Below are positions 7,096-59,552 of a stretch of DNA of 64,000 bases, in pieces. Both the position numbers and the translations under genes were made by a program. Each line of letters begins with the position of its first letter. Positions within the stretch are counted from its first letter, which is position 1. The notes beneath the pieces were generated by a model that saw only the letters and a list, made by a program, of their open reading frames with translations, was not told the origin of the DNA and did no database searches. Source of the DNA: Octopus sinensis (taxonomy: Eukaryota); assembly GCF_006345805.1 (NCBI RefSeq), contig NC_043007.1:33046001-33110000 (forward strand), written 5' to 3'.

Positions 7096-7634
7096 ATACT
7101 AACAATCATGAATGATTGAATATTGAATTGAGATACTAGAAGGCACCAACTCAACTCAGTATCAGAGCGAGCTAGAAGCCACAGCTAGTATCACCAAATT
7201 CAAAGTATGAATGAAAGCTTGTGTCACCAGTCCCTTTTAGTAGAAGAAATAGCTATAATCTCTTTGACTGCTATTTCTAAATTCGGTGTGTGGTAAGGCA
7301 ATTCGTTGCTAAACCCTTAATTGCTTAGTATTACTTAAATTTTCCTCGAATGAGGCTTTTACATGCCGAAGACTACTTGGTGTAATTGATAATTGTTCCA
7401 AATTAATTAATTTCACCCTTCATTGTTACTCATAAACCATATTCATCCCAGTAAATGACCACAGCACTTTGTCTTGGCTACACGCGGGTGGGAAGGGACT
7501 GGTGACACAAGCTTTCATTCATACTTTGAATTTGGTGATACTAGCTGTGGCTTCTAGCTCGCTCTGATACTGAGTTGAGTTGGTGCCTTCTAGTATCTCA
7601 AAATTCATATTCAATCATTCATGATTGTTAGTAT

Positions 7635-7724
7635 CCTGCGCTGATGAAGAAGAAGTCTGGTAAAGTAGAGTTATCTAATTCTTATGCTTTCCTAAGACTT
7701 GATCTCGAAACGTACGTCCGTAGG
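7635..7724 (+). ncRNA. Type I hammerhead ribozyme, inverted unit
   Basis: Stem I cctgcg(7635-40)/cgtagg(7719-24); CTGATGA 7641-47; stem II aagtct..aaagta/tgcttt..agactt; GAAA 7707-10; palindromic cgtacg; GUC 7716-18. Confidence 0.88.
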
Positions 7725-8020
7725 TGATAAAACTGTATGATAGATTGCCGTTAATTCATTCTTTTTTACCTGTTTGTGTTTGCCTTTCAAATGTTGTGCC
7801 TTTACTGTGATCTTCTTTTAGTAGAAGAAATAGCTATAATCTCTTTGACTGCTATTTCTAAATTCGGTGTGTGGTAAGGCAATCGTTGCTAAACCCTTAA
7901 TTGCTTAGAATTACTTAAATTTTCCTCGAATGAGGCTTTTACATGCCGAAGACTACTTGGTGTAATTGATAATTGTTCCAATTAATTAATTTCACCCTTC
8001 ATTGTTACTTATATATCTAT

Positions 8021-8053
<33 letters not shown>

Positions 8054-8074
8054 TATACATATATATACATATAT

Positions 8075-8212
8075 ACGACGAGCTTTTATTCAGTTTCCGT
8101 CTAACAACTCCACTCACAAAGCTTTGGTCTGCCCGAGGCTATAGTAGAAGACACTTGCCCAAGGTGCCACGCAGTGGGAATGAACCAGGAACCTTATGGT
8201 TGGTAAGCAAGA
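8075..8212 (-). mobile_element. SINE family A, 5' half
   Basis: Continues the SINE interrupted at 5071. Confidence 0.85.
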
Positions 8213-8695
8213 TGCTTTTATTATTTTATATATATCAATATGTATATAGACATCATAACGCCTATATATATATATACACACATATATATATACTTATATA
8301 ATTACATACATATGCACATGTATATATCTGTGTACGAATGTGTGGCTTTATTTCATTTATGTCAAAACCAATCACAATACAACATTTCATGTTGTGACAG
8401 GGATTGTACTTGGGAAGGCATCAATGATATCACACACATTTTCTGTAGTTAATTACATTACTTAATTAATTAATTACTTGGTTAATTAAAATAAAGAAGT
8501 AGACTGCCTGTGCTTAATCATTTTAAAAAGGAGACTTCCATATGACATTTATATACACACATGTAGTCAGAAATATATACATTTGTTTGTGTGTTGTGGT
8601 GTGTGTGTGTGGTGTGTGTGTGTGTGTGTGTATGTCATTTGTAGGAATACATAAATCCGAGGGAGAAGCACACTCTAAGGTGTAGAGCAGTTGAT

Positions 8696-8929
8696 ATTAT
8701 AATGGGGGACGGTTTATGGGGGTTACTCTGCGTCTCTTGCTCATAAGGGGTTTGCCTAACGGCGTATTTTCGGACTCCAGACACTGCTGGCGTAGGACCT
8801 CTTCAAAATATAATATTTTGAAGAGTTCTTAGGTCAGCAGTGTTTGGTGCCTGGAGATATGCTGTAAGGCTAAAGCCCTTATCAGGGAGAAACCCAGGGT
8901 AACCTCATAAACCGGCACCCGTTATAATA
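8696..8929 (+). repeat. Long imperfect hairpin (~115-bp arms) abutting (TA)n
   Basis: Arms align end to end around ctcttcaaaatat/atattttgaagag. Confidence 0.85.
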
Positions 8930-8930
8930 T

Positions 8931-8971
<41 letters not shown>

Positions 8972-8976
<5 letters not shown>

Positions 8977-9136
8977 GAGTAATTGAATGAATCATCTTAT
9001 TAAGGATAATCGAAAGATAACCGATTACATGGGTACTCCTTATTCCTCGGAATTAGGAATATGCAGCCTTCGAAACATATGTCGAGAATAAAGGATACTT
9101 GTTAACTAGTCGTTCAACTCCATTCTTTCATATACT

Positions 9137-9137
<1 letters not shown>
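8972..9137 (+). mobile_element. Fragment of the 41.4-kb HHR family (inverted 3' end plus 3' half of HHR)
   Basis: GAAAcatatGTC at 9072-9083; 8972-9036 is the reverse complement of ~41710-41769; (TA)n flanks. Confidence 0.75.
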
Positions 9138-9197
<60 letters not shown>

Positions 9198-9509
9198 AGA
9201 GAGAGGAGGGGGACAGACAGAGATAGTGACAGAGACAGAGACTCAAGAGCTGTCACCTAGAGATGCCCAATAGAGAAATCATGTAATAGTACTCAAATGA
9301 TTTGAACTTAAATTCTGGAATCTTTATCGAGGACTAGGTCCACGGAGTAAAGCATGGTTGCAAAAAAATCCACACGAGTTGATAATGGAAATAGTGATGC
9401 AGATAAAACTCCATTAGAACTGATACATAGAAATAAACATATATCATACGCATAGATATATACAAAAAGAAATATATATAATCTTGGATCTAAACTTTAT
9501 GTATATGAT

Positions 9510-9545
<36 letters not shown>

Positions 9546-9619
9546 ATATATATATAGTTAAATAAATTTTACAGAAACATAACAAATACCGAACACTAAT
9601 GAGTGAATGCATAATCTTT

Positions 9620-9711
9620 TTTAAATTGACAGCTGTTTCTGCAAGCTAGAATATACATATGCTATTTAAGCTCAATTAGTTTTAAGAGAATTTTATTATC
9701 CAACATTTAAA
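9620..9711 (-). ncRNA. Decayed hammerhead-like motif
   Basis: Stem I tttaaat/atttaaa and GAAA-cagctg-TC; the 5' core reads TTGGATAA. Confidence 0.4.
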
Positions 9712-9979
9712 TTGAAGTTGGATGTTTTCTTGATGAAACCATTCAAATCTGACTCGTCATCGTCATCTGTGACGGATTGCTGTGATGAAAATTTAGTCAC
9801 AGAATTTTAACCAAGCGCAGGCGTAGCTGTATGGTAAGAAGGTTCATTCCCGGAGCAGCGATCGGCGGGCGTCGTTGCTTCTCTCATCAATATCATTATT
9901 TTGTTCATCATTTCATATCATTTGTGTTATTGTCCAGCCCGCATTTGCTTCTATCTTTGCTTTTATGGCAAATCTGAGG

Positions 9980-10345
9980 AAATAAAGAAGGTTGCTTCCC
10001 AACTACATGGTTCCGGGATCATGGCACATTGATCCTCTACTATAGCCTCGAATCGACGAAAGCCATGTGTGTGGACTTGCTTGACGGAAACTGAAAGTAA
10101 CCTGTCGTGTATGTGTGTGTGTGTCTTTGTGTCTGTATTTGTCACCCCGCTAGTTCTTGACAACACGTGTTGGTGTGTTTACGCCACCTTAACTTAGCGG
10201 TTCTATAAAAGAGACCGATGGAATAAGTACAGAGCTTAAAGGCAAATAAATCCTGGGGTAGATTTGTTCAACTAAAGTCCTTCAAGGGGTGCCCCAGCAT
10301 GGCGACAGTTAAATGGCTGTAACAAATAAAAGCTAAAAGAGAAAA
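9980..10345 (+). mobile_element. SINE family A, diverged
   Basis: Similarity to other A copies. Confidence 0.75.
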
Positions 10346-10525
10346 GAAGTACATTTCCCATGGATGAGGTAACAAGGCAAGCTCATTGCTACTTCGACAA
10401 GATTATTTCACGTCTACAATTTTCAGATATGCCAGAGAGATAACTGGCGAATATAAAAGGTGCTCTAAGTTTTGATATTTTGGGTTTTGAGCTTTGAGAA
10501 CTTGATCAAGAAACCTGTCCATTGA

Positions 10526-10864
10526 GACCCCCTTCGGTCACGACACTGACCATGGGATTGGACCTAGAAAGTTACCCTCCCGGGCACAAGTCCGGGCAAG
10601 GTTGTTTATGGAAGACCAGTAGTCGCCCATGCATGCTGCCCCCCCCCCTCTCCACGCCACCAGTGTTATCCAAGGGAAAGGCAAAGGTCAATACAGAATG
10701 GCACCTGTGACATCGCAACTCATTTCTACAGCGGAGTGAACTGGAGCAACGTGAAATAAAGTGTCTTGCTGAAGAACACAACACGCAGCCCGTTCCGGGA
10801 TTCGAGCTCATAACATCACGATCGTAAGCTCGAAGCTCTAACCACTGAGCCATGCGCCTTCACA
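10526..10864 (-). mobile_element. SINE family C with TSD
   Basis: TSD ctgtccattga at 10515-10525 and 10869-10879. Confidence 0.9.
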
Positions 10865-11434
10865 TAATCTGTCCATTGATAACCTGAATGTAAGAGCAGA
10901 GTACTTTCCTTCTATTCATTTAATACAAGTTCCAAACAATCAAATTCATTCCTGTGTCTGCTGCTTAAATAACAATCTAATTGAACATACAGCTCCTACA
11001 AAATTTGTTCACTCAAAATTTAAACCAAAATGTAAATAACTCTGTCTAAAAGGGTTTTCTTTCTTTTTTTTCCCCCTCTCCTTGAGAAGAATAAGGTCGT
11101 CAGCTATTTGCAATCGTTCACAGATTTTTCAGTTGTGAATTATCCACTCTTTGTCTCTGACTAACGCGAATTTTATTCAATCAACGAAGTAGTGCAAGCT
11201 CGACCACAAACCGGATAACTGTCTAGGCACATATCTAATTAGATAGATGGATAGATACGTAGATAGGTAAGTGTACGAGCATATGTGCGTTTGTGCATGG
11301 AGGGGGGGTAGGTTATTGTATACATGTATGTGTGTATACGATTTCTATGTAGTAAAGTCATATTAATTCAAGCAAATAAGCATATATATATTATATATAT
11401 ATTATATATATATAATATAATATATATATATATT

Positions 11435-11465
<31 letters not shown>

Positions 11466-11658
11466 GTATATGTATATGTATGTATGTATGTATATACACA
11501 CACATATATAATGAAATAATATAACTGAAGAAGTTGACATTTATATATGTAGATCCATGTGCATGCATATATAAATATGATATATATATATATAATATAG
11601 ATGATATGTATTATACAAGTGTGTGTGTTATGTGTGTGTGTGCGTGTGTGTGTGTGGT

Positions 11659-11691
<33 letters not shown>

Positions 11692-12019
11692 TTATATGTT
11701 TATGCATTTCATTTTCGACGTTCCCGTTACAAAAACCAATGTGCGCTACCAAATGAGTTGCACTAATTACGTTCTCTAGAAAACAAACAAAAATATTAAC
11801 AGCTCTCTCTCTCACTCTCTCTCCCTCTCTCTCTTTCTCTCTCTCTCTTCCTCTCACTGTGTCTCTCTTTTCCTATGCCTGAGTTAATGTGTTTCAGCAG
11901 TTGTAAATCGATTTTCCCCTCTTCAATATAGCTTCTTGTTATCGTTTTAGATCGAGACAATACATCGCTTATTTACAGTCGCTATTCGCAAAACAAAACT
12001 TATAGAGCCAAACATCTAG

Positions 12020-12033
12020 TTATCATCATCACG

Positions 12034-12065
<32 letters not shown>

Positions 12066-12118
12066 CATCGTCATCATCATCATCATCATCATCATCATCG
12101 TCATTATTATTATTATTA

Positions 12119-12163
<45 letters not shown>

Positions 12164-12166
12164 TAT
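12020..12166. repeat. (CAT)n(ATT)n microsatellite
   Basis: Direct inspection. Confidence 0.95.
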
Positions 12167-12396
12167 GCTATTTCACTTCTCATTAGCACACATTAAATTC
12201 ACTCAAACTCAGGCGCTGGTGGTTAGATGCATGTGAGTGTGTATATTTATGTATATGAATGCGTGTGCATATATATATAATATATATTATATATATAATA
12301 TATATAATATATATATATATATAACCCATATATACAACCATATATATATATTAACATATATGTATATGCATAATAAGTAATATAAGTATGTGTGTG

Positions 12397-12448
<52 letters not shown>

Positions 12449-12769
12449 GCATGTATATATATACGTATAAGCAACTTATTTGCTCACACAGACGCACACA
12501 CACACACACGAATACAAAGATACGCTCACACCTGTACACATGATACATCGATTCTCAATTCTGACTTTGTGTATGTGCTTATTCGTTTATGTGCGTATGT
12601 CTGTATGTATATATGTATGCATGTACGTATGTATGTACGTATGTATGCATATATGCAACCATACATTATGCGTGTAAGTACGTACGCTTCTGTATTTTTC
12701 TCTATTTTAATACTTGTGTTCCAATGGGATGTTTTTCCGTCTTTTGAAATCACTTACATGTTTATAATT

Positions 12770-13345
12770 TCATAGTGTGTCCAAACATTGCCACTCCCTC
12801 TGCTTCCGCGACCCCTATCAATCAAAAACTGGGCGATAGGGGTTGTTTTTTAGTGGCGGTGGGAGCCAAATCTATCACACACTATTGAATGACAAACCAA
12901 GACGCAAGCATGACTCTCTGATTACTGAATTCTCCTCGAACCAAGATGGTAGCATCCGTCTTCTCTGTCCCCCATTCCTGCTAGAGTCTTGGCGGGTAGA
13001 GTCTTCAGGAATCTATCATAATCATCCGTCATTAGACTTCCCAGCTGGATTCTCGAGCATAACCAGCTAAGACTGTTGGCATCATCTAACCATTTCGTTC
13101 ATATTCTGCCCCTACGTCTCATACGGATTGGCTCGGCTTAAAAGAAACCGTCTTCCGATTCCTTTCTGCAACATTCTAATCTCAAATCCATAGTACCGGA
13201 GCTGGGACTTTTCAATGCAGAGAAGTAGCGGCTCGACCTGGGAAGATACCTGATCTGCGAGTAGTGCTCCTTGTCGAGTAAAGTTACTCCAGAAACTCTT
13301 CGGAGGAACCCCTTTTCAGCCACTAGTATTCGCGATTGTATTCTT
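12770..13345 (-). mobile_element. RTE-clade LINE 3' fragment
   Basis: AEKGFLRRVSGVTLLDK and frameshifted QVEPLLLCIEKSQLRYYG resemble RTE ORF C-termini. Confidence 0.7.
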
Positions 13346-13518
13346 GAAACTTAGATGGTTTCAAGTTCAATACCATTGCACAGCACTTCGAGCATGCATT
13401 GTGCACCATATACTCAGGTAAATCAATCACCTTGTAAGAGAAACTGGGAGACGGAAGGAAACTGTCTGAGGATGTATCAATGGGGTACAAATTATATGTA
13501 TATATATGTATTATATAT

Positions 13519-13571
<53 letters not shown>

Positions 13572-13575
<4 letters not shown>

Positions 13576-13990
13576 GACAGTTTGAAAATGCAATTTTAAA
13601 GAGCTTATTCACTTGACCGGTTTCACTTTTTTTAGAAAAACATTGTCAAAAGTAAAATATAAAGCTTTGTGTAAGCTTTGTTTTGTTAAGTACTAGTTAT
13701 CACAAAGTTTTAAAATACATATATACATTCTTTGATAATAATAAGAAAACTGTTTAAAAATAGTTTACAAGAAAGTATTTAAGAAAATATTCAAAAAAGT
13801 ATTAGGAGCTCAGAAAATCATGTTTGTTTGGTAGTATATATTATTATATATATAGATATATATATATATATATACATACACAGACATACTTTTCTAAAAA
13901 GTGAAACCGGTCAAGTGAATAAACATCTTTAAAATTGCATTTTTCAAACCTTCTTTCCATATATTTCCACCCGTGTGAAACCTTACAACT
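13572..13990. mobile_element. Inverted-arm element in (TA)n with variant hammerhead
   Basis: Arms 13572-13640 and 13890-13958; both carry GAAAccggTC. Confidence 0.75.
13608..13656 (-). ncRNA. Minimal type I hammerhead, U3-A8 core variant
   Basis: tttactt-TTGACAA-t-stem II-GAAA-ccgg-TC-aagtgaa; 7-bp stem I. Confidence 0.6.
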
Positions 13991-14059
13991 TCATTTTGTT
14001 ATATATATATTATATATATATATATTATAATATATTATATAATAATATAATATATATAT

Positions 14060-14103
<44 letters not shown>

Positions 14104-14527
14104 TTATGTATATAAATTTAGATGAATGTCTTTTCATTTTTCTGCCAGCGTGATTGTGCTGTCTGCCGTATCTCAGATTGTTTCTCATGAAATTTATCTG
14201 CTTCCCTCTTGATGCTTTTCAATGCATATGCTGAAATTGAAGCAGCTTTGTCTAAACCCCTTTCTCTATTGTTACCATTCCATGTCCCCAAATTCTGTTC
14301 TTACAATAACAGCTTCTTTTGAATAGCGGATTTGAATCTGAAGGAGAATGCTCTGATCCAAAAGCCCATTTCTTTCAGCTGCATCGTTAGTAGCTGATGA
14401 ACAACTTCAATCAAATGTTTACTGAAATCCCCTGGCAGTACTCCTGCAAAAGTATTAAACAACGACAAGTGATTGGTTGCATTGCTATTTCAGTAACCAA
14501 GCAATTCGTGGTGATTGATCCTATTAT

Positions 14528-15118: not shown

Positions 15119-15185
<67 letters not shown>

Positions 15186-15708: not shown

Positions 15709-15769
<61 letters not shown>

Positions 15770-27364: not shown

Positions 27365-27918
27365 TTGGATTGTCCGGAAAGGTCATGCCGATTTATAGTA
27401 GCTTACCTTTCGACTTATTTTAGAACATGGTTGAGTGCATCAAATAGGATTTCACTACACCTCCATTTAGAGCACAGTTTAAGCTATCTTTTCGTGGAAG
27501 AAGGTTTATGTTCCTATGACCTGTGTTAATTCTATAACCCTTTAAAATGGAAGATAAAGTTCAATTTCGGCAATTGATGCTCTGGAAAAATTGCTGCAGC
27601 TCGGCTGGAATGTGTTACCCCACCCTCCATATTCACCAGATATTGCCCCTTCGGATTTCCACTTATTCAGGTCTCTGCAGAATAGTCTTAATGCTAAAAA
27701 TTTCAGTTCCTTGGATGATGTAAAAAGATACCTTGATGAATTCTTTGCCACGAAACCACCTCAATTCTGGGAAGGGGGTATTTTCAAGTTAAAGGAAAGA
27801 TGGAGACGCATTGTGCAACAAAATTATTCATATTTGGTTGATTAAAAATGTAATGGTAAGTATTTATTGACCTTTTTCTTTCCTTTAAAAATAGGCAGGA
27901 ACTTTCCGGACAACCCAA
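27365..27918 (+). mobile_element. Internally deleted mariner transposon
   Basis: TA TSDs; ~30-bp TIRs ttggattgtccggaaag / ctttccggacaacccaa; C-terminal transposase with HPPYSPDIAPSDFHLF (27591-27845). Confidence 0.93.
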
Positions 27919-31899: not shown

Positions 31900-33531
31900 G
31901 ATTCGAATTGAAGATTTCTTGCACCAAGGTTTTAATGCAGAACACACAGAAAACATGGTACTGCAGACATTAATTGTTTAGCAACTGGGCTGCCTGAACC
32001 TATTGGAGTACCTCAGCTTGATCATCGTGAAGACCTCGATCACCCATGCATTGCAACACTTACTAATGAACAAAGACAGTTTGCTAATGCTGTGCTTGAA
32101 TCTGTAGATAAAAAAGAGGAGAGGTGAGATGCCCAACCACTCCTGTTTCTATGCAGATGCACCAGGAGGTTACTCTTTACTTACTTGTTTCAGTCATGTG
32201 ACTGGAGCCATGCTTGAGCACCGCCCTTAGTCGAGCAAATCGACCCCAGGACTTATTCTTTGGAAGCCTAGTACTTATTCTATCGGTCTCTTTTGCTGAA
32301 CCGCTAAGTTACGGGGACGTAAACACACCACCATCGGTTGTCAAGCGATGTTGGGGGGACAAACACATACACACAAACATACACAGACACTCATACACAC
32401 ATACATGTATATGTTTACATATATACGACAGGCTTCTTTCAGTTTCCGTCTACCAAATCCACTCACAAGGCTTTGGTCGGCCCGAGGCTATAGAAGACAC
32501 TTGCCCAAGGTGCCACGCAGTGGGACTGAACCCGGAGCCATGTGGTTGGTAAGCAAGCTACTTACCACACAGCCACTCCTACGCCTGTGGTAAAACTTAT
32601 GTTTAATACCATAATTTGTTATCTGCGAAGGAACAACTGCAACATGTGCAGTGGTGCTTGGACAGGCATTGCCTTTACACTACTGTCAGGTGGAAAGACT
32701 ATCCATAGTTTGTTCAAGTTGCCTGTCCCACTCACGGATGCTAGTGTTTGTAATGTACCAGCCACTTCAGACCATGCAAATTATTTACGAAACCTGGATT
32801 TGATCATCTTGGATGAGGTTTTTATGATCCCTTCATTTGCACTTCATGCTTTTGATAGATCTTTGCAAGATATCACTAGCATTGCTGCTGTTTTTGGTGG
32901 TAAATTTATGCTCTTGGGAGGAGACTTTAAGCAAGTCCTACCCATATTGCTAAGAGGAGCTCGTGAGGCAATTATTGAAATCTGTATTAAAAATTCTCCT
33001 CCATGGCTGAATTTCATCCAATACAGATTAAGCCAGATCAACTGCAGATCAAAGGGAATTTTCAGCATGGCTCTTGTATCTTGGCAACGGAACATATGCA
33101 GCTCCACAAGATTCTAATCTTGCTGTTGATGACATAGAAGTGCCTCATATTTCACGCGTTGACGGCTCTCTGATGGATGATATCTTCAACAATACATCTG
33201 CGGAAGAAAGAAGAAGCAGTCATTTTTACGCCAAAGAACTAAGACTGCTTCCTGATCTATGAAGAAGTTTTGAGACAACTTCCAGGTGACTGCTGCACCT
33301 GTTATAGTACAGATAAAGTTTTGACCGATGATCTTGCTGAGGCTGAGCGCTATCCACTTGAATTTCTTGAACTCTTTGACACCATCAGGAATGGCGCCGC
33401 ATAAATTGAGTTTAAAACCCAGCTCAATAGTAATACTTCTTCGTAACATTTCTATCCAGAATGAACTTTTCAATGGTACAAGACTGGAAGTGGTGGCCAT
33501 GCATCAACATTCAATCGAGGCTTCCTTGATT
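31900..33531 (+). pseudogene. Helitron Rep/Helicase PIF1-like helicase fragment (frameshifted, SINE-interrupted)
   Basis: DAPGG|CGKT Walker A, AWTGIA, GKTIHSLFKLP, LIILDE, LLGGDFKQVLP, FLNSLTPSGMAPHKLSLK, NGTRL motifs. Confidence 0.9.
32171..32586 (-). mobile_element. SINE family A inserted in the helicase Walker A
   Basis: Full-length SINE between gga ggt and tgt ggt aaa act. Confidence 0.92.
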
Positions 33532-33554
33532 AGTTTATGTATACACACACACAT

Positions 33555-33820
33555 GGTCTCTATAGTCTCGGGGCAATCAAAACAACTGAAAGAAGCTTAT
33601 CGATTATGTGTGTGTGTGTGTTTGTCCCCCACCACTGCTTGACAACAATGTTGGTGCGTTTACGTACTTGTCATGTAGCGATTCGTCAAGAGAGGCCGAC
33701 AGGATAAGTACTAGGCTTTAAAAAGAAATTAAGATCTGGAGTCGATTCAGTCAACTAAAAATTATTCAAGGCTGTGTTCCAGCTTGGCCGCAGTCTAATG
33801 GCTGTAACATGTAAAAGACA
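33555..33820 (+). mobile_element. SINE family A, partial
   Basis: Tail similarity. Confidence 0.7.
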
Positions 33821-37507: not shown

Positions 37508-37526
37508 TGTATATATATATATATAT

Positions 37527-37915
37527 AAATACAGTAGGGTATCAGAATACCACTTGCTAGAAAAAGGAGCTAACACCCCAAAACCACAAATTTCTCACTA
37601 TTAATAAATACGCACGGTGAATGCAACGGATATAATAGAATAGGCTTACCTTGTATAAACTGCAAAAGCAAGAAACAGATATCCTGGTATCAATTGATTT
37701 CACCTTTTCTACCTTTGTAATGAAGCATCGTCAGCCAGACTCACTGTATTCATCTATTTTTGAAAATATTCATCACATTACACCATGCGTATTCATTAAT
37801 AGTGAGAAATTTGTGGTTTTGAGTGTAGTTCCTCTTCCCAGCAAGTGATATTCTGATAGCCTACTCTATTTATTTGTATATTTTACCTATATAGGTTAAA
37901 CTTGCTGGCCATTTT
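37527..37915. mobile_element. Inverted-arm HHR element
   Basis: ~95-bp arms at 37527-37622 and ~37773-37871 enclosing the HHR. Confidence 0.78.
37684..37738 (-). ncRNA. Type I hammerhead ribozyme
   Basis: ctgg-CTGACGA-t-gctt..aggt-GAAA-tcaattga(palindrome)-TA-ccag. Confidence 0.75.
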
Positions 37916-41302: not shown

Positions 41303-41367
<65 letters not shown>

Positions 41368-41370
<3 letters not shown>

Positions 41371-41770
41371 GAAAGAATGGAGTTGAACGACGAATTAACA
41401 AAATTCCTTTATTTTCGACATATGTTTCAAAGGCTGCATATTCCTAATTTCGAAGGAATAAGGAGTGCATTATGCCGCCTTCTCATCAGGAAAAACAAGG
41501 AACTTATGTCAGCATCAAGATGAACAAAAACTTTTAGATGACTGCCAACACGGAGCCCATAGCGAGAATAAAGGAATTTTGTTAATTCGTCGTTCAACTC
41601 CATTCTTTCATTTATTTGTATTAAAAAAACACACAAATTTCCACACGAAAGCACATGATCTCTGCCCTTGGCATGTAGCTTCAACCGTGTTTTTCTGGCG
41701 TGAGTTTGCTACCCAGGTATCGGTTAACCGAATTATCCATAATAAGACAATTCATTCAACTACTCAAATA
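41368..41770. mobile_element. HHR element with inverted segment in (TA)n
   Basis: 41368-41416 is the reverse complement of 41564-41612. Confidence 0.82.
41412..41494 (-). ncRNA. Type I hammerhead ribozyme
   Basis: ttttc-CTGATGA-gaaggc..gccttt-GAAA-catatg-TC-gaaaa. Confidence 0.8.
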
Positions 41771-41847: not shown

Positions 41848-41887
41848 TAGCAAAGATTTTTTATGTGAAATCGTGTGTGTGAAACAG

Positions 41888-42150
41888 ATATTGTTGTATT
41901 TAGGAATGGTCATTTTGCCAGTTTAGCCAATATAAACACACGCACTATATTTGGTGTTACTTTGCTTCAGCGTTATTTATTTTTTACATTAATCTTTTTT
42001 CGGCCAGGAGTATGACGAAAGAACTCTGGCCGAAATAAGATTAAGATTAATGTAAAAAATAAATAACGCTGAAGCAAAGTAACACCAAATATGTAGTGCG
42101 TGTTTTATTGGCTAAACTGGGAAAATGACCATTCCTAAAAACAACAATAT
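41888..42150. repeat. ~125-bp-arm foldback in (TA)n
   Basis: atattgttg..tcggccag / ctggccga..caacaatat. Confidence 0.88.
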
Positions 42151-42188
42151 GTGTGTATATATATATATATATGCATGTGTGTGTGTAC

Positions 42189-42344
42189 ATATAAGAGGCA
42201 TGGCCACTAAGTGGACATCCATTATGCTAGAAGTCGCCCCCCTATGGTCTTACCACTAAGAAAGGAATGTTCTCAAGTGGTAAGACCATAGGGGGTCGAT
42301 TTCTAGCATAATGGAATTCCACTTAGTGGTCATCCCTCCTATAT
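42189..42344. repeat. ~75-bp-arm foldback
   Basis: ccactaagtgga..tggtcttaccact / agtggtaagacca..tccacttagtgg. Confidence 0.88.
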
Positions 42345-42476
42345 GTATGTAATATAATTTTTGTGAATCTTCAGATTTCTCAATTTGCTAGACCACTGGT
42401 TTTAAACTGATATTAATCAAATTAATATTCAATTTTTCACCCTTATTATCTTAAATTTAGATATATTATATATACA

Positions 42477-42542: not shown

Positions 42543-42548
<6 letters not shown>

Positions 42549-42733
42549 GGGTTAAGCAACAAGTTACTTCACCACATACCATATGTGGTGAAGAAGCTTG
42601 TTGCTAAACCCTTAATTATATTTAATTATATAAAAAATTTTTATGTAAAAGTTTCTACCGATAATGGTCCTCTTTCCATACCGAAGCTACTTGGTAAAAT
42701 TTGTTAATTATCAAATGAATAATTCTTTACCCT
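42543..42733. mobile_element. Truncated snap-back relative of the 580-bp array family
   Basis: aattaagggttaagcaac.. / gttgctaaacccttaatt and ccgaagctacttggt..accct match the array unit. Confidence 0.7.
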
Positions 42734-43400
42734 ATATATATATGAATATATATATACGGTAAGCACGATCAAGGTTTCCAAGTGTAAGAATTAAGTAAGC
42801 CTCGGGCATGTGTGCAGCTTTCCATTCCTATACCCTTCGGGATAAATATATTTATATATATATATATATATACATATGTGTGTGTGCGTGTGCGTGTGTA
42901 TGTATGTATGTATGTATAGCCAAAATACTATTGAGAAAAATCACATATCTAGTTGTAGAATTCACTGTATAAACGCGATAGTTGTTTCTATTTAGATGTA
43001 GAAAATATCATTGAAATTAGCACTCCCGAAAAATACATGTTAACACAACGTTTCCAAGGTGATCCGAAATTATTTAAATTCAAAGTGTTCGCTATATCTA
43101 AATATGTTCATACGACACAAACAATTACCGGCTTTGTAAGGTGAATTCTACAATTAAAGATGCTATTTTTCATTATACGTATTTTTCTTGTCTAATACTC
43201 TGAATTTGTGGAAATACTTCCAAATGATATTTGGACCTACTTGTCATACATGAGGAATTAAAGAGGAATTACCTTGGATGTGTATTCTACTTGCATTTAC
43301 TGGTGTCTGATTGTTGGATGTAGTTAAGCAGTGTTTTATTGATATCTGCCTGGATTTTTTAATCCCCTTTCTTTCTACTTACACACACACACACAAACAT

Positions 43401-43432
<32 letters not shown>

Positions 43433-43439
43433 GTATCTA

Positions 43440-43695
43440 TATATAATAGAAGGAAAATACTCGAACGCCAGACCGTACAAAACCAGAAAAATAAAGAGAG
43501 AGAAAAACAAACTCCTCCATTGATTCTTATATATATTTTCATTAACAACTTCCTGATTAATGAAGGAATGAGTCGTCAGATATTGACCAAGAAGTTATTA
43601 ATTAAAATATATATAAGAATCTCCGATGTATCTGCTTTTTATGTATATATGTTTTTCTGATTTTGAATGGCCTGGCGTTCGGGTAATTTCCTTCT

Positions 43696-43701
<6 letters not shown>
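43440..43701. repeat. Imperfect foldback in (TA)n (a weaker one at ~42920-43200)
   Basis: tagaaggaaaatactcgaacgccagacc / ggcctggcgttcgggtaatttccttcta. Confidence 0.8.
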
Positions 43702-43740
<39 letters not shown>

Positions 43741-43747
43741 TATATAT

Positions 43748-44020
43748 AAGAAACAAGGATATCCAGAGGTAATGCAGTACGATCGTTTCACGCAACTCCA
43801 TTTAATTGAACAATGCAACCATTACAGCAATTTAAATGCAGAGCACTCTTCAGCTGTACAAAGACATAGATTTAAGCAAATTAAAACAGATGGACACATT
43901 AGTATAATTTTAACTAAAATCTCCAAGACGTAAAGGGGATAGACAAAGAACATGCTGCTTTCACTTCTAAGTAGAAGTGAAGGCATCATGTTCTTTGTCT
44001 ATCTCCTTAACTTCTTGGAG

Positions 44021-44022
<2 letters not shown>
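43748..44022 (-). mobile_element. HHR element (family shared with 54.0 kb) with terminal snap-back; HHR at 43772-43859
   Basis: gtacag-CTGAAGA..GAAA-cgatcg-TA-ctgcat on the minus strand. Confidence 0.78.
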
Positions 44023-44066
<44 letters not shown>

Positions 44067-44071: not shown

Positions 44072-44712
44072 CTTTCGTGTTTTAAACATATATATACACC
44101 TCTTTCGTGTATAAATACTTAATGCTTTGTACACTATTATATATGAAGATATGTTGTTTATTGACTTTATTACGTATGCTAGCCACCGGTATAAATACTT
44201 TTCTGAACTTTCTACCCTTATTATTTTCACTGTAAAATTTTCGTAATTTCAAAACCTTTGTGGTACGCAGTTTTAATATATTATTATTTGCTGCCGAATA
44301 TAACTGCGCTTCCACGGTGGATTTGAAATTATAATGCATAGGTATTCAGCATGCAAGTGCTTTCGATACGTATTAACCGTATAATTATATATTAATTTTC
44401 GCGACCTCACTGATTAAGTACAGATCACAAATTTATCTATTTGCTCATTAATATAGAAACCCGAGTTTGAGGTTAACTATAAAAATATTTTTTATTTTCA
44501 TTCCTTTGAAATTGCTTTTATTCATGCTTTGGATTTTGACTGCCGTTTCTAGCATGTGAAGTGTCCTGTCAAATGTCACCTCTTTCATATATAAATACTT
44601 AATGGTTTGTACACTATTATATATGGAAATATGTTTTCTATTGACTATATTACGCATGCTAGCCACCGGTAGGATCACTTTTCTAAATTTTGTACCCTCA
44701 TTATTTTCACAA
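44067..44712 (+). mobile_element. 1.3-unit tandem element (480-bp period) with G8U hammerhead at 44404-44473
   Basis: 44097-44230 repeats at 44577-44710; acctca-CTGATTA..GAAA-cccgag-TT-tgaggt. Confidence 0.72.

Positions 44713-51627: not shown

Positions 51628-51657
<30 letters not shown>
51415..51657. repeat. (CATA)n/(CATG)n microsatellite
   Basis: Direct inspection. Confidence 0.95.
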
Positions 51658-51658
<1 letters not shown>

Positions 51659-52130: not shown

Positions 52131-52707
52131 CTAGAGCGTGTGCTGCCAAGGTAGGTGGAACTTGTCCACCACGTTCAATCGCTGCTCGTTGATGGTGATG
52201 TTGGACTCAACGTAGGGCTTGGCTGGAGCTGGTTGATACATTACCTCAGTCTTTTTTGTATTGATAGTAAGGCCAAAGTTGTTACAGGCGCCAGAGAACA
52301 AGTCAACGCTGTACTGCATGTTGGACTCAGTGACAGCATTGAGAGCGCAGTCATCGGCGAACAGGAGGTCGTTGACGGTGTCTACTGAAATCTTGGTTTA
52401 CGCTTTGAGCCTCCCGAGGTTGAAGACTGAACCGTCGGACCGGTACTTGATGCCGACGCCTATGTCTGTGTCCCTGAAAGCAACTGTCAGCATGGCTGAG
52501 AACGTAATTGCTGAAGAAGGTGGGAGCAAGGACACATCAGAGATCTCTCCGTTGTCCTGTACCCTTGCCAACATGCCATCGTGTAGTTGCCTTACGATGG
52601 TGATGAATTTTCTGGGGCATCCATACTTCGGCAAGATTCTCCAGAGACCTTCTCTACTAATGGTATCAAAGGCCTTGGTCAGATCGATGTAGGTGGAGTA
52701 GAGATCT
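52131..52707 (-). mobile_element. RTE-clade LINE reverse transcriptase fragment
   Basis: IDLTKAFDTISREGLWRIL, KYRSDGSVFNLGRLKA, DLLFADDCAL, FGLTINTKKTEVM; internal stop, frameshift and deletion. Confidence 0.92.
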
Positions 52708-52732
52708 ATAGATATATACTATATATATATAA

Positions 52733-52774
<42 letters not shown>

Positions 52775-53234
52775 CATACACACATACATTCAGTCATTCA
52801 TTTGTTCATACTTGCATACATACATTTCATATGTGTATGCATCCATACATATATATTGAAGTCAATTATGTTTGGTGCGAGATTGCCAGGAATGGATATG
52901 GCGTTATTCAGAATGAGCGGTCTTGAGGTGAAGAGTCAAAGATTTTCCATTTTTATGCGATATCCGAAACTAAAATATTTACGTTCGTTTACATGAGTTG
53001 AGTTGCAATTAATCAAATGATACACGCGCAGACCCACACGCAATGCATATAAGTTTATATACGCATGCACACATTCTCAGAAACCTATATATATGGTCAT
53101 TCACAAACATAAATGCACACATGTACACCCACACACAGACATAGAATAGAAACACCCAGAGATACGAACACATTTGTATGCTCGACTGCTGTTACTTCGA
53201 AACTATATATACATTAACATAAGGTAAATGTGTA

Positions 53235-53280
<46 letters not shown>

Positions 53281-53420
53281 CATATATACTTGTGTGTGTT
53301 TGTGTGTGTGTGTGCGTGCGCTTATAAATAGCTTTATAGACACATGTGTATGCGTGGTGTATGTATGCATATACATCCATCTATCCATCCATCCATCCAT
53401 CATCCACCTCCATCCATCCA

Positions 53421-53451
<31 letters not shown>

Positions 53452-53779
53452 GTACGTGTGGTTTCTGTGCGTTATAGGTAGTTCTTTAAAAAGCTCGATG
53501 CTATTTGCTCAAATTTATTCCCTGTAATAAGAGATTCTAATTGTTGTTTCCCGTGTAAAATGTTGGCAGAATCACCATATCACACTTTTAATCAGCTCTT
53601 ATTAGCATCGACTGATATATACATATATGCGTATCTACATACATACATAAATGCATATGTAATTAGTGATATATATATATTATATATATATTATATATAT
53701 ATATATGTTGTGTGGTGTGTGTGTGTGTTGTGTGTTGTGTGTGTGTATGTATATAATATATAATATAATATAATATAAC

Positions 53780-53960
53780 ATAAATCCCGTTCTGTCTGTC
53801 TGTTTGTGCGCCTATAACTCAAGTATTATTCATCCGATCGCGTTGAAATTTTAAATATAGATACATGAGAGAGCGGGGCGTTCCATAATCTAAAAAGTCT
53901 TTCAAAGTGAGAATCGCTATTTTTGTAATGTTTGCCGGTCCGTCAGATGATTCAAACTTC
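53780..53960 (+). mobile_element. Helitron/HINE-like non-autonomous 5' fragment
   Basis: (CTGT)n near the start, then ataactc..catccgatc..tgaaattt. Confidence 0.45.
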
Positions 53961-54135
53961 CATTTTTATTTTTATTCGAAATTACTGTTACGTATCCCGT
54001 CGAAAGAACAAATTTCATCAGCAATATTGCTGCTGAAACTTGTTCTTTGTCTATCTAGTTATCCTCTTTGTGATTTTGGTTAATAGAATAACTATGCAAA
54101 TGAATCCTTTGAATTTAACTAAATTCTATATTTTT

Positions 54136-54225
54136 ATGCAGCTGAAGATTGCTCTACATTTTAAAACTGATGTAATATTTGCATTGTTCAATTAAATGGA
54201 GTCGCATGAAACGATCGTACTGCAT
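54136..54225 (+). ncRNA. Type I hammerhead ribozyme (element ~54003-54250)
   Basis: atgcag-CTGAAGA(54142-48)..GAAA(54208-11)-cgatcg-TA-ctgcat; perfect 6-bp stem I. Confidence 0.8.
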
Positions 54226-54899
54226 TACCTCTGGATATCCTTGTTGCTTATTTATATATATATACAATGGGCCTCTTTCAGTTTCCGTGTACCAAATCCA
54301 CTCACAAGGCTTTGATCAGCCTGAGGCATTAGTAGAAGACACTTGCATAGAATCATTTCGTTAATATTTTCTAACGTTTGTTTAGTAGTTTTTTTAAACA
54401 CTTAGTGCTATCATGTGTTGAGTAGTCTTGCTTATCTACAGCAGTACGAAGAATAATCTAAAGGGAAGCCTGAGCGACTTAGAGCATTCCATCTCCATGT
54501 GACCCTTTAAGACTGTTTTGTATGATACTTAATGACATGGATATATAAACATAACTGATAACAGAAATTCAGTGATTCAAAAGCGATTATTTGCACATTC
54601 ACTTTTTGATACGTTCTGACAAATTCGAATGCGAATATGCGTATCGCCATTGTATTTCGTCATTAAAGAATGCTTTTCGTTTCAGACGAATGCTTGTTAG
54701 TAACAAGTTCGATTAATTAGGATAAGGGGCCATTAAGACACCCAGTGTTTCGACATCTTTGCGTCTCCTCAGTGAAAGCTCTTCCGGATTAATGAATCTA
54801 ACGAGACATTGTGGCTTTTTTTTTTATTCACCAAACAGATTATTTACTGATGTATTTCTGATGTCTGCGAACCGATAATAAATTTTAAGAGCCCCACCA

Positions 54900-55580
54900 A
54901 TACTATTAACTTTACTAACACAACTACCGTGACAGCATACTCCGCCAACAAACCCAAAACAACCACTCGCAACACCACAACTACACCCAGCACAAAAACC
55001 ACTAACAAAACCATCACCACCACAACCACTACTAACACAACTATTAACAATACAACCACCACTACCCCCCTCTACAGCTGCCATAGCTACAACCACAACA
55101 ACACAAAAACTGCTGCCACCACGTCCGCAACCAACACAACAATCACTTTCAACGCCACAACCACTAACACAACAACCACTACCAACACAACCACAACCAA
55201 CACAGCAATCACTACCAACATCACAACCGCTACTAAGACAACAACCGCTACCACCGCAACCACAACCAATTCAACATTCACTCTCAACGCCACAACCACT
55301 ACCAACATAACCACCGCCACAACTACAACCAACACAGCAATCACTACCAACATAACCCCCACCACCACCACCACTACAACCGCCATAACTACAACCACAA
55401 CCAATTCAACAACACCACCACAACCGATATCACCACATCCACAGCCACAACCAACTCAACAATCACTATCAACTACCACTACCACTACCACTACCAGCGC
55501 CACCACCTCAACCACTACCAACACAACAGCTACTACTAGCACTATAAGCACAAATATCACCACTGCTGCTACCATTATCG
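54900..55580. repeat. Degenerate (ACC/ACA/ACT)n low-complexity tract
   Basis: Direct inspection. Confidence 0.88.
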
Positions 55581-55729
55581 CTCAAAAACAGTCGTTAGGT
55601 TGTTGTCTTAAAAAGTATGGAGACGATATCGACCCATGCGGTCGAATCTCTTTGAATTATCATTCACAAGCTTTAATCGAACAACTGATGATCATGTAAC
55701 TAGCGAATATCCATCTATCTGATAGTCAG

Positions 55730-55932
55730 GGTGTGATAGATCGCTAGCAACTACACATTCTTTATTTTCTCTCCTCGTTTCATTCTGTGTTCCTTTCTGT
55801 GGAAGAGCGTAGGCTCGAAACGTTAAAGACATTTTCACTTCCCGAGCATTATACTAATAATGTTGTCTACACCACCTGTTTGTTGTCTACACCAACTGTC
55901 TTCATCTTTTGTTGCTTTGTGAATTCTCCTCT
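55730..55932 (+). mobile_element. A6U-hammerhead element; motif 55793-55828
   Basis: cttt-CTGTGGA-a-gagc-gtag-gctc-GAAAC-GTT-aaag. Confidence 0.7.
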
Positions 55933-56016
55933 ATGCATTGAGTTACGTACGTCTGTGTGTGTGTTTATGCGCGCGTGTGTGTGTGTGTGTGTTTATGTGT
56001 ACGTGTGCATAAATGT

Positions 56017-56433
56017 AGGCGTAGGAGTGGCTGCGTGTTAAGTAGACTGCTTACGAACCACACGGTTCCGGGTTCATTCCCACTGCGTGGCACCTTGGGC
56101 AAGTGTCTTCTACTATAGCCTCGGGTCGACCAAAGCCTTGTGAGTGGATTTGGTAGACGGAAACTGAAAGAAGCCCGTCGTATATATGTATATATATGAA
56201 TGCATGTGTATGTGTGTATATATTAGTATATCTGAGTTTGTCCCCCCAGCAACGCTTGACAACCGATGCTGGTGTGTTTACGTCCCCGTAACTTAGCGGT
56301 TCGGTAAAAGAGACTGTTAGAATAAGTACTAGGCTTACAAAGAATAAGTCCCGGGGTCGATTTGCTCGACTAAAGGCGGTGCTCCAGCATGACCACAGTC
56401 AAATGACAAACAGATAAAAGATTAAAGATTAAG
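56017..56433 (+). mobile_element. SINE family A
   Basis: Full length. Confidence 0.92.
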
Positions 56434-56474
<41 letters not shown>

Positions 56475-56476
<2 letters not shown>

Positions 56477-57205
56477 AATTAAGGACTGAACACGAAAAGT
56501 GGACAGTGAACATGCTAGATATAGACGTCAAATCGCCATTCTCCACAAAATATTATGTTCTCAGATCAAACTCAGCACAAAACCATAGCAATAAACAAGT
56601 GAAAATATACGAAATAAAATAATTACCCATGTACTAATCAGTTTCGGCTGTTATTTACCACAAGGAAAACTGCAGCCATCATCAGCATGGTCCGTTATAA
56701 ATGCAATTTGCTGGACTAGATGCAAACACGATACCGAAATATTGCGTGCATGGAGTTCAGCCTATTACATTTGAATATATCTTTCAAATGCCTTTACTTT
56801 GGCACGTTGAGACCCGAGAAAACTAGCCTGCAGCTAATAATTAGCAGCAGTCAATTTATCGGTTAGAGAACATATTTATTTATATAAAATTAATTAAGGG
56901 TAGAAATTGATATTTATCAATTAAGACCAGTGGTCTAGCATATTAAAAAATAATCCGAAGATTAAAATATTTATATATACCAATTAAGGACTGAACACGA
57001 AAAGTGGACAGTCAACATGCTAGAAATATACGTCAAATCGCCATTCTCCACAAAATATTATGTTCTCAGATCAAACTCAGCACAAAACCATAGCAATAAA
57101 CAAGTGAAAATATTTATCGGTTAGAGAACATATTTATTTATATAAAATTAATTATGCTAGACCACTGGTCTTAATTGATAAATATCAATTTCTACCCTTA
57201 ATTAA
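56475..57205. mobile_element. HHR element: 505-bp unit, partial tandem copy and inverted tip, in (TA)n
   Basis: ccaattaaggactg at 56475 and 56980; 57154-57205 is the reverse complement of ~56890-56941. Confidence 0.85.
56627..56690 (-). ncRNA. Type I hammerhead ribozyme
   Basis: ccatg-CTGATGA-t-ggctg..cagcc-GAAA-ctgatta-GTA-catgg. Confidence 0.88.
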
Positions 57206-57522
57206 TATATATATATATATAACGTGAGCGTGTTTGCGCGCGCCTGCGTTCATATATGTACACAACAATTTCTCTAGTATATTGTCTGCCTATCTATTTA
57301 TCGGCACATTGTTTTTGTTCTTGTTAATTCATCTACCAGTGCATACACACATACACACACACAACCCCATATTTTTTCTCTATGTATATACACATACACT
57401 CACACACACTACCTCTGTCTCTTTTTCTTCTCCTCTCTTCTCTATCTTTCTCTCATTTAAATTCATACAACTACACACACAGATATACCACACACACACA
57501 CACACATACACACATACATACA

Positions 57523-57553
<31 letters not shown>

Positions 57554-57692
57554 GGTCGACTTTGCCTTTCATCCTTTCGGGGTCGATAAATAAAGTACCA
57601 GTTTCGCACTGGGGTCGATATAATCGACTTAATCCGTTTGTCTGTCCTTGCTTGTCCCTTCTATGTTTAGCCCCTTGTGGGTAGTAAAGAAA
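57554..57692 (+). mobile_element. SINE family B, 3' part
   Basis: Match to family B. Confidence 0.85.
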
Positions 57693-57948
57693 TATATATA
57701 TATATTGTATATATATATATATATATTATATATAAATTAATCAATTTAGGGTAGCAAAAATTCAGTAAAAATTATCGCTACCACGGCTGGTGGAAAAGAC
57801 AAAATAGTCAAAGACTAAATAGATTAAATATAACAATTTAGGAATGGCCGAAACAGGCCATTCGTCCCAGAACAGAGCAGCCAGAACCCAACCGCCAGTA
57901 GTGACATTCGGAATAAGGTGAAAATTTAAAAAAATTTACCCTAATTCA

Positions 57949-58048
57949 TCTTTTATACGATGCATCGTTTCAGTGTCTTTAATGATAGCACCAGCTTAAT
58001 TAAATTAAATTAAGTAGTCTACCATAGGTCACATTCATCAGTAAAAGA
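57949..58048 (-). ncRNA. Type I hammerhead ribozyme, unit 1
   Basis: tctttta-CTGATGA..GAAA-cgatgcatc-GTA-taaaaga. Confidence 0.83.
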
Positions 58049-58413
58049 AACCTGGGAGAGACGGATATACACGAGGCGACGTATCAATGCCTCGGGAATA
58101 TCTGTTTAAAATTTTCAAGACCAACGCATTCGCGCAAACTTATCGGCAGCAAATATAAAACTGCCGATTCAATCTCAGAATTAGTCAGAAAATTACAATT
58201 AATAATTTAGGGAGCAAAAAAAATCAGTAAAAATTTATCGCTACCAGCGGCCTGGTGGAAAAGAGAAAATAGTCAAAGACTAAATAGATAAATATAACAA
58301 TTTAGAATGGCCTAAACAGGCCATTCGTCCACAGAAAGAGCAGCCAGAACTCCAACGCCAAGTAGTGTAATTCGGAAATAAGGTGAAAATTTAAAAACAT
58401 TTACCCTAATTCA

Positions 58414-58513
58414 TCTTTTATACGATGCATCTTTCAGTGTCTTTAATGATAGACCAGCTTAATTAAATTAAATTAAGCTAGTCTACCATAGGTCACACTT
58501 CATCAGTAAAAGA
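58414..58513 (-). ncRNA. Type I hammerhead, unit 2 (1-nt deletion in stem III)
   Basis: atctttc versus atcgtttc in the other units. Confidence 0.75.
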
Positions 58514-58879
58514 AACCTGGGAGAGACGGATATACACGAGGCGACTGTATCAATGCCTCGGGAATATCTGTCTTAAAATTTTCAAGACCAACGCATTCGC
58601 GCCAAACTTATCGGCAGCAAATAAAACTGCCGATTCAATCTCAGATTAGTCAGAAAATTATCAATAATCAATTTAGGGTAGCAAAAATTCAGTAAAAATT
58701 TATCGCTACCAGCGGCCTGGTGGAAAAGAGAAAATAGTCAAGACTAAATAGATAATATAACAATTTAGGAATGGCCTAAACAGGCCATTCGTCCACCAGA
58801 AAGAGCAGCCAGAACTCCAACCGCCAAGTAGTGTAATTCGGAAATAAGGTGAAAATTTAAAAACATTTACCCTAATTCA

Positions 58880-58980
58880 TCTTTTATACGATGCATCGTT
58901 TCAGTGTCTTTAATGATAGACCAGCTTAATTAAATTAAATTAAGCTAGTCTACCATAGGTCACACTTCATCAGTAAAAGA
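58880..58980 (-). ncRNA. Type I hammerhead ribozyme, unit 3 (intact)
   Basis: 7-bp stem I; stem II agtgt..atggtagactagcttaatt/aattaagctggtctatcat..acact; palindromic cgatgcatcg; GUA site. Confidence 0.9.
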
Positions 58981-59150
58981 AACCTGGGAGAGACGGATAT
59001 ACACGACGCACACAATCATACACGCACATACATACAAACATACATACACACGTACGTACCTACGTACATACATTGATGCATACATAAAACTACATAATAT
59101 GTGTGAAAGTTGGAATTCCTACACCTCGATTATGATGGAGACACCCACGC

Positions 59151-59195
<45 letters not shown>

Positions 59196-59552
59196 ATTAA
59201 TAAATATAAGGGTAGCAAAAAATTCTAGAAAAAATTTTCCGCTACCAGCGGTCTAGTGAGAAAGAGAAAATAGTCAAAGACTATATAATATACATTCAAC
59301 AATATAAGGAATGGCCATATAGGACATTCGACTCACTAGAAAATTTATGTATACGTATGTGTGCACGTTTGTGTATGTGTGCGCGCTCGTGCGTTGTGTA
59401 TGTGTATGGAATTCTCTTAGCTTCCAGATCCTCCAGTGCTATCATCGTAACGGGCAACGAACCTTCTTCACACATATATATTTATGCGTGAATTATGTGT
59501 TTGCTTGTGTGTATGTGTGTTTGTTTGTGTGCGCGTGTGTGTGTGTGTGTGT

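Follow-up and report, generated by a model that had tools for sequence, protein, structure and literature searches.

Metazoan retrozymes without long terminal repeats (non-LTR retrozymes) are non-coding tandem units of low GC content with type I hammerhead motifs (PMC7229834; bioRxiv 10.64898/2026.07.22.740005), and such hammerheads are described as working in dimers (PMC4209133; PMC7229834). Retrozymes are thought to be moved by Penelope-like elements (PLEs), a link that has been published (bioRxiv 10.64898/2026.07.22.740005). PLEs generally leave inverted arms, often with a tail on one end only (PMC8557442). Poseidon_Ac cuts and extends both strands at AT-rich DNA, it starts copying internally at two stem-loop sites that bound the genomic tail, and it is predicted to be a dimer (PMC11167929). 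We analysed 64,000 nucleotides of Octopus sinensis DNA (assembly GCF_006345805.1, contig NC_043007.1, positions 33,046,001 to 33,110,000; hereafter the window), which are AT-rich and rich in microsatellites and lie in a genome of 2.7 Gb. The window holds six families (A to F) of non-coding units of 465–585 bp, inserted in (TA)n as single copies, as tandems from dimers to multimers, or in inverted arrangement. On the features testable here these carriers fit non-LTR retrozymes. They differ in having units of 465–585 bp, and the portions of the two retrozyme texts that were covered (PMC7229834; bioRxiv 10.64898/2026.07.22.740005) do not describe the end sites, the 3′ module or the one-of-each rule reported below.

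An initial annotation of the window had proposed that unrelated ribozyme families share one 3′-terminal hairpin, GGT...ACCCT, which acts as a structural cis-signal for the mobilising enzyme. We found that this hairpin is the last part of a module of 130–170 nt, composed of a helix (P1), hairpin 1, a spacer and hairpin 2. Along a unit the order is a hammerhead-like motif, the first strand of P1, hairpin 1 followed by C(C)T, a first end site (T1), an AT-rich spacer, the second strand of P1, a linker (CCACT or CTACTT), hairpin 2 (GGT...ACC) followed by CT, and a second end site (T2). Our best reading is that the signal is this two-hairpin module with its long-range helix, lying inside the RNA and marking two alternative copy ends. 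We propose, with a probability of about two in three, that the module tells a Hydra-type Penelope-like reverse transcriptase-endonuclease where to start copying. The idea of a cis-signal for the mobilising enzyme survives as the best reading, and that of a single 3′-terminal hairpin of unrelated families does not.

In P1, of 7–13 bp, the strand right before hairpin 1 pairs with the strand right before hairpin 2, and the sequences differ between families. A and C have TTCGGTRTG paired with CATRCCGAA; B, D and E have CTAGCAT and ATGCTAG; F has CTGGTGGA and TCCACCAG; and an F-like variant has CTAGTGAG and CTCACTAG, with three compensatory changes relative to F. RNAalifold, run on a plain unguided MAFFT alignment, picked P1 as the sole helix. 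Across 13 sequences 74 of 78 cells were paired, and five of the six pairs had changed on both sides. The covariation check proposed with the initial annotation was thus passed by P1: its paired fraction or covariation score was matched in 0 of 500 shuffles, and the number of compensated pairs in 114 of 500. Slid registers were only 20–56% paired. In a cross-family matrix, the own-family strand was the best or equal best partner for eight of nine 5′ strands, the exception being D (shuffle p 0.0002–0.011). A model-fitted alignment of 33 hits gave pairing of 97% in P1, 94% in hairpin 1, 68% in a middle helix and 86% in hairpin 2. In two samples of copies taken in chromosome order P1 was detected in 23 of 32 and 12 of 20; several of the misses were copies truncated or inverted within the module, and two were locus-edge effects.

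In hairpin 2 the GGT/ACC pairs that close the stem hardly vary across the 33-hit alignment and therefore provide no covariation evidence. Change was seen elsewhere: of 26 variants, 8 have A-T and 11 have G-C as pair 4 of hairpin 2, and hairpin 1 is closed by GGC/GCC in one relative versus GGT/ACC in A. When the last hairpin was folded in isolation, GGT closed on ACC (ATC in one) in all 13 representative copies, and the inner stems were unlike one another, which bears out the annotated view that these stems differ in sequence yet mostly pair. The z-scores ranged from −7.4 to −0.2 and lay below −2.5 in 10 of the 13; the weak folds were both family D copies and one copy labelled F4. As a separate observation, a small alternative hairpin, ACC-ACT-GGT, can arise from the linker together with GGT (42390–42402 and 57157–57171); it would rival the stem that closes hairpin 2 and is a possible switch.

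All ten places at which the GGT-N-ACCCT motif had been annotated carry it: 7292–7317, 7379–7419, 42398–42443, 42693–42733, 44188–44218, 44668–44698 and 57167–57198 on the plus strand, and 56897–56928, 57748–57782 and 59209–59246 on the minus strand. They do not represent one hairpin type, however; at 7292 the motif is hairpin 1, and at the nine remaining places it is hairpin 2. The same families hold 11 more such places in the window (7873, 7959 and 42587, plus strand; 5082, 5565, 5662, 6143, 6246, 6832, 42548 and 58675, minus strand). Genome-wide, CTAGRCCRCYGGT-N12-40-ACCC gave 8,824 matches versus 13 for the reversed control, and CCGAA-N0-2-CTACTTGGT-N15-40-ACCC gave 4,615 versus 2. These counts mostly mirror the copy number of repeats, and with more than 13,000 motif copies from two strict patterns the carriers are common. 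The loose motif without the linker is not diagnostic. In 600 kb of sequence (60 arbitrary 10-kb stretches), 11 of 649 (TA)n junctions had a bare ACCCT no more than 25 nt away versus 9.3 expected, which is no enrichment. When the linker was not required, 7 of 85 matches to GGT-hairpin-ACCCT were close to (TA)n versus a 3.9% background, about twofold. The annotated position shortly before (TA)n was found for some copies, and many others are array-internal and away from (TA)n (for example 7292, 7379, 44188 and 56897). In the two chromosome-order samples, (TA)n was at most 30 nt away for 15 of the 32 motif copies in one and 15 of the 20 in the other, with many of the others inside arrays.

We found that copies end at two fixed sites, T1 and T2, each about 7–20 nt past a hairpin, which agrees with the expected enrichment of the motif at element termini. 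In family A, among the 150 of 166 matches listed, 55 of 57 3′-truncated fragments ended at query positions 92–107 or 191–209 (counted by eye), two sites about 100 nt apart, each 4–19 nt past a hairpin and directly at (TA)n. Copies of F, E, B and C end at two sites as in A, and the T1–T2 spacing across families is 88–124 nt. The insertions also show 5′ truncation, partial tandems, an inverted arm and a tail on one end, all features of the PLE type. In inverted two-armed insertions, one arm ended at T1 and the other at T2 in 42 of 43 pairs, a count drawn from 152 distinct ends (60 T1 and 92 T2) at 140 loci with junctions at most 25 nt from the hairpin, and with the T1 anchor of family D shifted. 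The rule held in 12 of 12 inverted insertions of A and F that were fetched by whole-unit queries. A chromosome-order set of 20 loci had opposite arms ending at T1 in 10 cases and at T2 in none; at the other 10 loci no opposite arm was found. Furthermore, substitution distances in A, E and F were 0.3–0.7% between opposite arms, 0.4–0.8% within an arm and 1.2–2.4% between insertions. Opposite arms differ no more than the units of a single arm do, which is what a common template for the two would predict, and both arms look as if they were copied from one source.

The carriers proved to be kin, contrary to the annotated view that the ribozyme families are unrelated. In a BLAST match of 152 nt, B and E agree at 72% of positions, and 13 copies spanning all families align across the 3′ module. 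A covariance model made from four F-group copies ranked A, E, B and D next in the window, where the top 12 of 29 hits were true copies (four of them F-group); in the 600-kb sample it returned 13 hits with E-values of 1 or less. On these alignments the six families are distant relatives within one diverged lineage. Each unit has a type I hammerhead-like motif, mostly with a short palindromic stem III, as read by hand; the CTGATGA/GAAA core with stems I–III was read in A, E and F and is more decayed in B, C and D. Comparison with Hydra- and Neptune-like proteins revealed no PLE protein in any unit or in the window. Three protein matches near units (L084, L018 and L005) were considered as unit-encoded and rejected as mere neighbours; one of them (L084), the remains of a Hydra element that lie 300 bp in front of a family D copy, looks like a chance neighbourhood. 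Among the 150 of 175 Rfam matches listed for the window, there were microsatellite-driven microRNA matches and one transfer RNA (tRNA), and no family for the module or for hammerheads. Four contig sets guessed to be RNA contained pieces of units only, without strand, ends or circles, and a metagenome scan gave two short contigs that are cut off ahead of their ends.

Candidates for the enzyme lie elsewhere in the genome. Two protein searches for Hydra-type elements, in which 150 of 12,636 and 150 of 18,813 candidates were scored, yielded two young families with open frames of 960 and 717 codons. Both frames have Hydra-clade features (RWR/RWK, DKT and CxCx5C; RWR, DKT and CxCx5C in the 960-codon frame) and they are 39% identical over about 490 amino acids. 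The candidate helper protein had no significant match in Pfam. The 960-codon family (L370 and L371; G000:C4:78516001-78523000 and G000:C26:1190501-1198000) is about 5.6 kb long, with Asn-rich inserts and a 3′ region of about 2.7 kb. It has a canonical hammerhead, (TA)n ends and two end sites about 170 nt apart. T2 lies 9–16 nt after GGGTTGAA...TTCAACC-CCT in 27 of 30 loci, the other three reading into the next unit. The last hairpin in full is CCCAT-GGTG-GGTTGAA...TTCAACC-CCT, and its stem is kept in relatives through a G-C to A-T change. T1 comes after CCATTCTCT-AATTTTG, which resembles the CCATTCCT-AAATTG of family F. In inverted copies with both ends seen, T1 was combined with T2 in 8 of 8. 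This family ends behind a GGT...ACC-CCT hairpin similar to that of the carriers and is the best candidate helper.

Other elements of this genome also have two ends. The 717-codon family (L276–L287) has the hammerhead core variant CCGAAGA and two ends 64 nt apart; before the second end there is a GGT-N-ACCGT without a paired inner stem, a weak lead. A young Neptune-like family with open frames of about 780 codons, found by its GIY-YIG domain (L231, L232 and L097–L120), has a hammerhead-like motif with the core TTGATAA. Its two ends are separated by about 35 nt, and a small hairpin and CT precede the second of them.

How the module might work can be put as follows. A multi-unit or circular transcript would fold the module, and a borrowed protein, whose binding to the module is inferred, would cut both strands of the (TA)n target. 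Priming by one cut end would take place about 10 nt 3′ of hairpin 1, and priming by the other at about the same distance 3′ of hairpin 2, on one and the same RNA. The two complementary DNAs (cDNAs) would join at their truncated 5′ ends, giving an inverted insertion with a tail on one side only. More speculatively, two protein copies would take one hairpin each, with P1 setting the start sites side by side. Such coupled double priming, in which the branched module offers a hairpin-plus-CT site to each half of a dimeric enzyme, is a tentative extension to which we give somewhat less than even odds. If it is true, both ends of the cut (TA)n start copying at different fixed points.

Several observations weigh against the start-signal reading. 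In family D, T1 lies 34–52 nt past the homologue of hairpin 1, behind a third hairpin, and hairpin 2 folds weakly. No P1 helix folds in the 960-codon family, the F-group covariance model does not match its 3′ ends, and its end spacing is 170 nt versus 88–124 nt in the carriers. The 717-codon family obeys the two-end rule in five of six readable copies with a different sequence, and therefore the rule does not need this module. That family and remnants resembling Hydra-1_Obim were rejected as module carriers, with no model hit at the 3′ ends of three loci; Neptune-like elements were likewise rejected, having different ends and no model hit at three loci. On the statistical side, the 13 aligned sequences are kin, so that their compensatory changes may amount to 5–8 events; the shuffle control takes no account of relatedness, and the 33-hit alignment was fitted to the covariance model. 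Loci of B to E were fetched with T2-bearing queries, which under-samples T1+T1 pairs there, and the 43-pair count took in only junctions within 25 nt of a hairpin. Finally, the similarity of the arms could instead come from local homogenisation or assembly polishing.

Three other explanations were weighed, and all of them account for the T1-plus-T2 rule less simply than a start signal does. The hairpins might form RNA ends by termination or processing, with two RNA species then copied from their ends in the manner of long interspersed nuclear elements (LINEs). A hairpin followed by an AT/U-rich stretch does resemble a terminator, and the end positions are sharp. However, the tandem arrays read through T1 and T2 many times, the arms look copied from one source, and free RNA ends would pair randomly, whereas T1 and T2 are combined in 42 of 43. 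Internal starts have moreover been shown in vitro for another PLE, though its RNA-seq read ends also fell on the start sites. We consider this account improbable. We think just as little of a signal at the DNA level, by which the endonuclease would read cDNA or donor sequence and resolve an intermediate at T1 and T2. For it speak the attribution of the Penelope tail to endonuclease-mediated resolution by Craig et al., the Drosophila virilis tail needed for endonuclease recognition (as told in PMC11167929), and the invariant GGT and ACCCT, which look like sequence read-out. Yet the inner stems vary freely in sequence and length, and the pairing of P1 through G-U wobbles and compensatory changes over about 90 nt fits a single-stranded RNA better.

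Marginally less unlikely is that the fold is kept for another purpose, such as RNA stability or circularisation, hammerhead folding or protein loading, and that TA patches simply pair with the (TA)n primer. The junctions do fall at TA-containing positions of the unit, the families share ancestry, and other Penelope-like families of this genome have two ends without this module. Against this, the units are AT-rich throughout and yet show two end clusters, each shortly behind a hairpin and CT; the clustering holds although the spacer sequences differ between families; and microhomology alone does not yield the one-of-each rule. A start signal read from within the RNA remains our preferred reading.

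The closest described systems resemble the carriers only in part. With Poseidon_Ac the carriers share two start or end sites bounding a tail, structured RNA at these sites and an AT-rich target. In Poseidon_Ac the sites lie close together (a tail of 30–40 bp) in one AC-rich stem loop inside the open reading frame (PMC11167929), whereas in the carriers 88–124 nt separate the two sites, each of which has a hairpin of its own just upstream, and a covarying long-range helix links them. The Hydra clade shares (TA)n targeting, canonical hammerheads, inverted 5′-truncated arms and a tail on one end, and the published consensus of Hydra-1_Crog ends in TACCCT plus 13 nt (read by eye); in contrast, the elements of the window are non-coding, Hydra-1_Obim terminates shortly past its hammerhead and lacks the module, and Hydra elements are generally below 3 kb (PMC8557442), the candidate helper of about 5.6 kb being about twice that. 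In Terminon/Athena elements, too, the 3′ region is folded, and an ACCC-type stretch, (ACACCC)n or (TCACCC)n, comes after it; there the stretch pairs with telomeric DNA and serves as the priming site (PMC6431247). Telomere-like priming at ACCCT was rejected for the carriers because the junctions lie 7–20 nt beyond ACCCT, in (TA)n, indicating that ACCCT is copied and is not a primer-binding site.

Within the window, family A occupies two arms. The left arm (5072–7236, minus strand) has about 3.7 tandem units of about 585 bp, and its outward end is T1, with hairpin 1 at 5082–5107 followed by (TA)n. The right arm (7234–8013, plus strand) has 1.3 units and ends outward at T2, with hairpin 2 at 7959–7998 and (TA)n from about 8010. 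It includes a complete internal module (7282–7419, plus strand), in which P1 joins 7282–7291 with 7361–7370 and hairpin 1 (7292–7317) is followed by the linker and hairpin 2 (7379–7419). A hammerhead-like motif spans 7635–7724 (plus strand; CTGATGA at 7641, GAAA, a palindromic loop III and a predicted cut after the GTC at 7718), and further copies were read from the minus strand at 7019–7089, 5850–5921 and 5272–5344. Family C, a relative of A, forms a two-armed insertion at 42544–42735: the minus arm has hairpin 1 at 42548–42573 (T1), and the plus arm has hairpin 1 at 42587–42612, the P1 3′ strand at 42677–42685 and hairpin 2 at 42693–42733 (T2). The two-armed insertion of family B (42186–42460) has a minus arm ending at T1 (hairpin end 42196) and a plus arm with the P1 5′ strand at 42303–42309, hairpin 1 reaching to 42337, a decayed P1 3′ strand at 42387–42391, hairpin 2 at 42398–42443 and T2.

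Family D is older and is present as 1.3 units of about 480 bp (44097–44712, plus strand). It has hairpin 2 at 44188–44218, a decayed hammerhead-like core at 44410–44460 and, distally, P1 joining 44549–44555 with 44656–44662, hairpin 2 at 44668–44698 and T2. In the two-armed insertion of family E (56475–57206), the plus arm ends at T2 after hairpin 2 (57167–57198), and the minus arm has a full module (56897–57023), a hammerhead-like core (56641–56685) and T1 (hairpin end 56482). Family F (57735–59009, minus strand) comprises 2.7 units of about 470 bp with a module at 58675–58799, T2 after hairpin 2 at 57748–57782, and hammerhead-like cores at 58898–58973, 58432–58506 and 57967–58041, all on the minus strand. 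Its units also have an extra hairpin right after the hammerhead, with GGT...ACCCT on the opposite strand (57917–57942, 58382–58407 and 58848–58873), at which no copy ends were seen. The F-like variant (59191–59342, minus strand) consists of the module only, with P1 joining 59332–59339 and 59253–59260, hairpin 2 at 59209–59246 and T2. Outside the window, another family (L157:4045–4183 and L139) ends at (TA)n behind a very short last hairpin, GGTATCTCTTAGATACC-CT, and could represent a further branch of this module.

Remnants embedded in (TA)n with hammerhead-like cores and other 3′ ends were found at 41335–41621 with 9035–9164, at 43734–43952 with 54041–54263, and at 43429–43714. Short inverted-repeat islands between (TA)n runs (8694–8930, 37517–37881, 41884–42154 and 43915–44026) are probably two-armed ends of further Penelope-mobilised families. 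The remaining features include what we take, from translated motifs, to be a broken Helitron/PIF1-like helicase fragment (32530–33639), and presumably fragments of a Mariner-like transposase (27558–27842, plus strand) and an RTE-like reverse transcriptase (52401–52718, minus strand). A tRNA match above the Rfam threshold (62878–62940, minus strand) adjoins a repeat resembling a short interspersed nuclear element (SINE). There is also a Thr-rich repetitive open frame of 282 codons (54851–55696) and a tandem duplication of about 530 bp with internal palindromes (62939–64000).

We found no published account of the module or of the strict pairing rule, although most subscription papers, Repbase, figures and the bioRxiv supplements could hold one; newly obtained here are the long-range helix with its covariation and the candidate helper with a frame of 960 codons. 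How PLEs choose their templates and produce inverted insertions with one tail is an open question, and one element has been studied in vitro. The module names bases to mutate and offers natural compensatory variants, and candidate helpers that are young and have open frames occur in this genome, so that the question becomes directly testable. If coupled double priming is true, a portable module of about 150 nt would turn any linear or circular RNA into a substrate, and structural selection would have preserved that module throughout a lineage of ribozyme parasites. SINEs share 3′ tails with LINEs; in a comparable way, the module would supply the cis-link that has been missing between the retrozymes of animals and the elements that help them.

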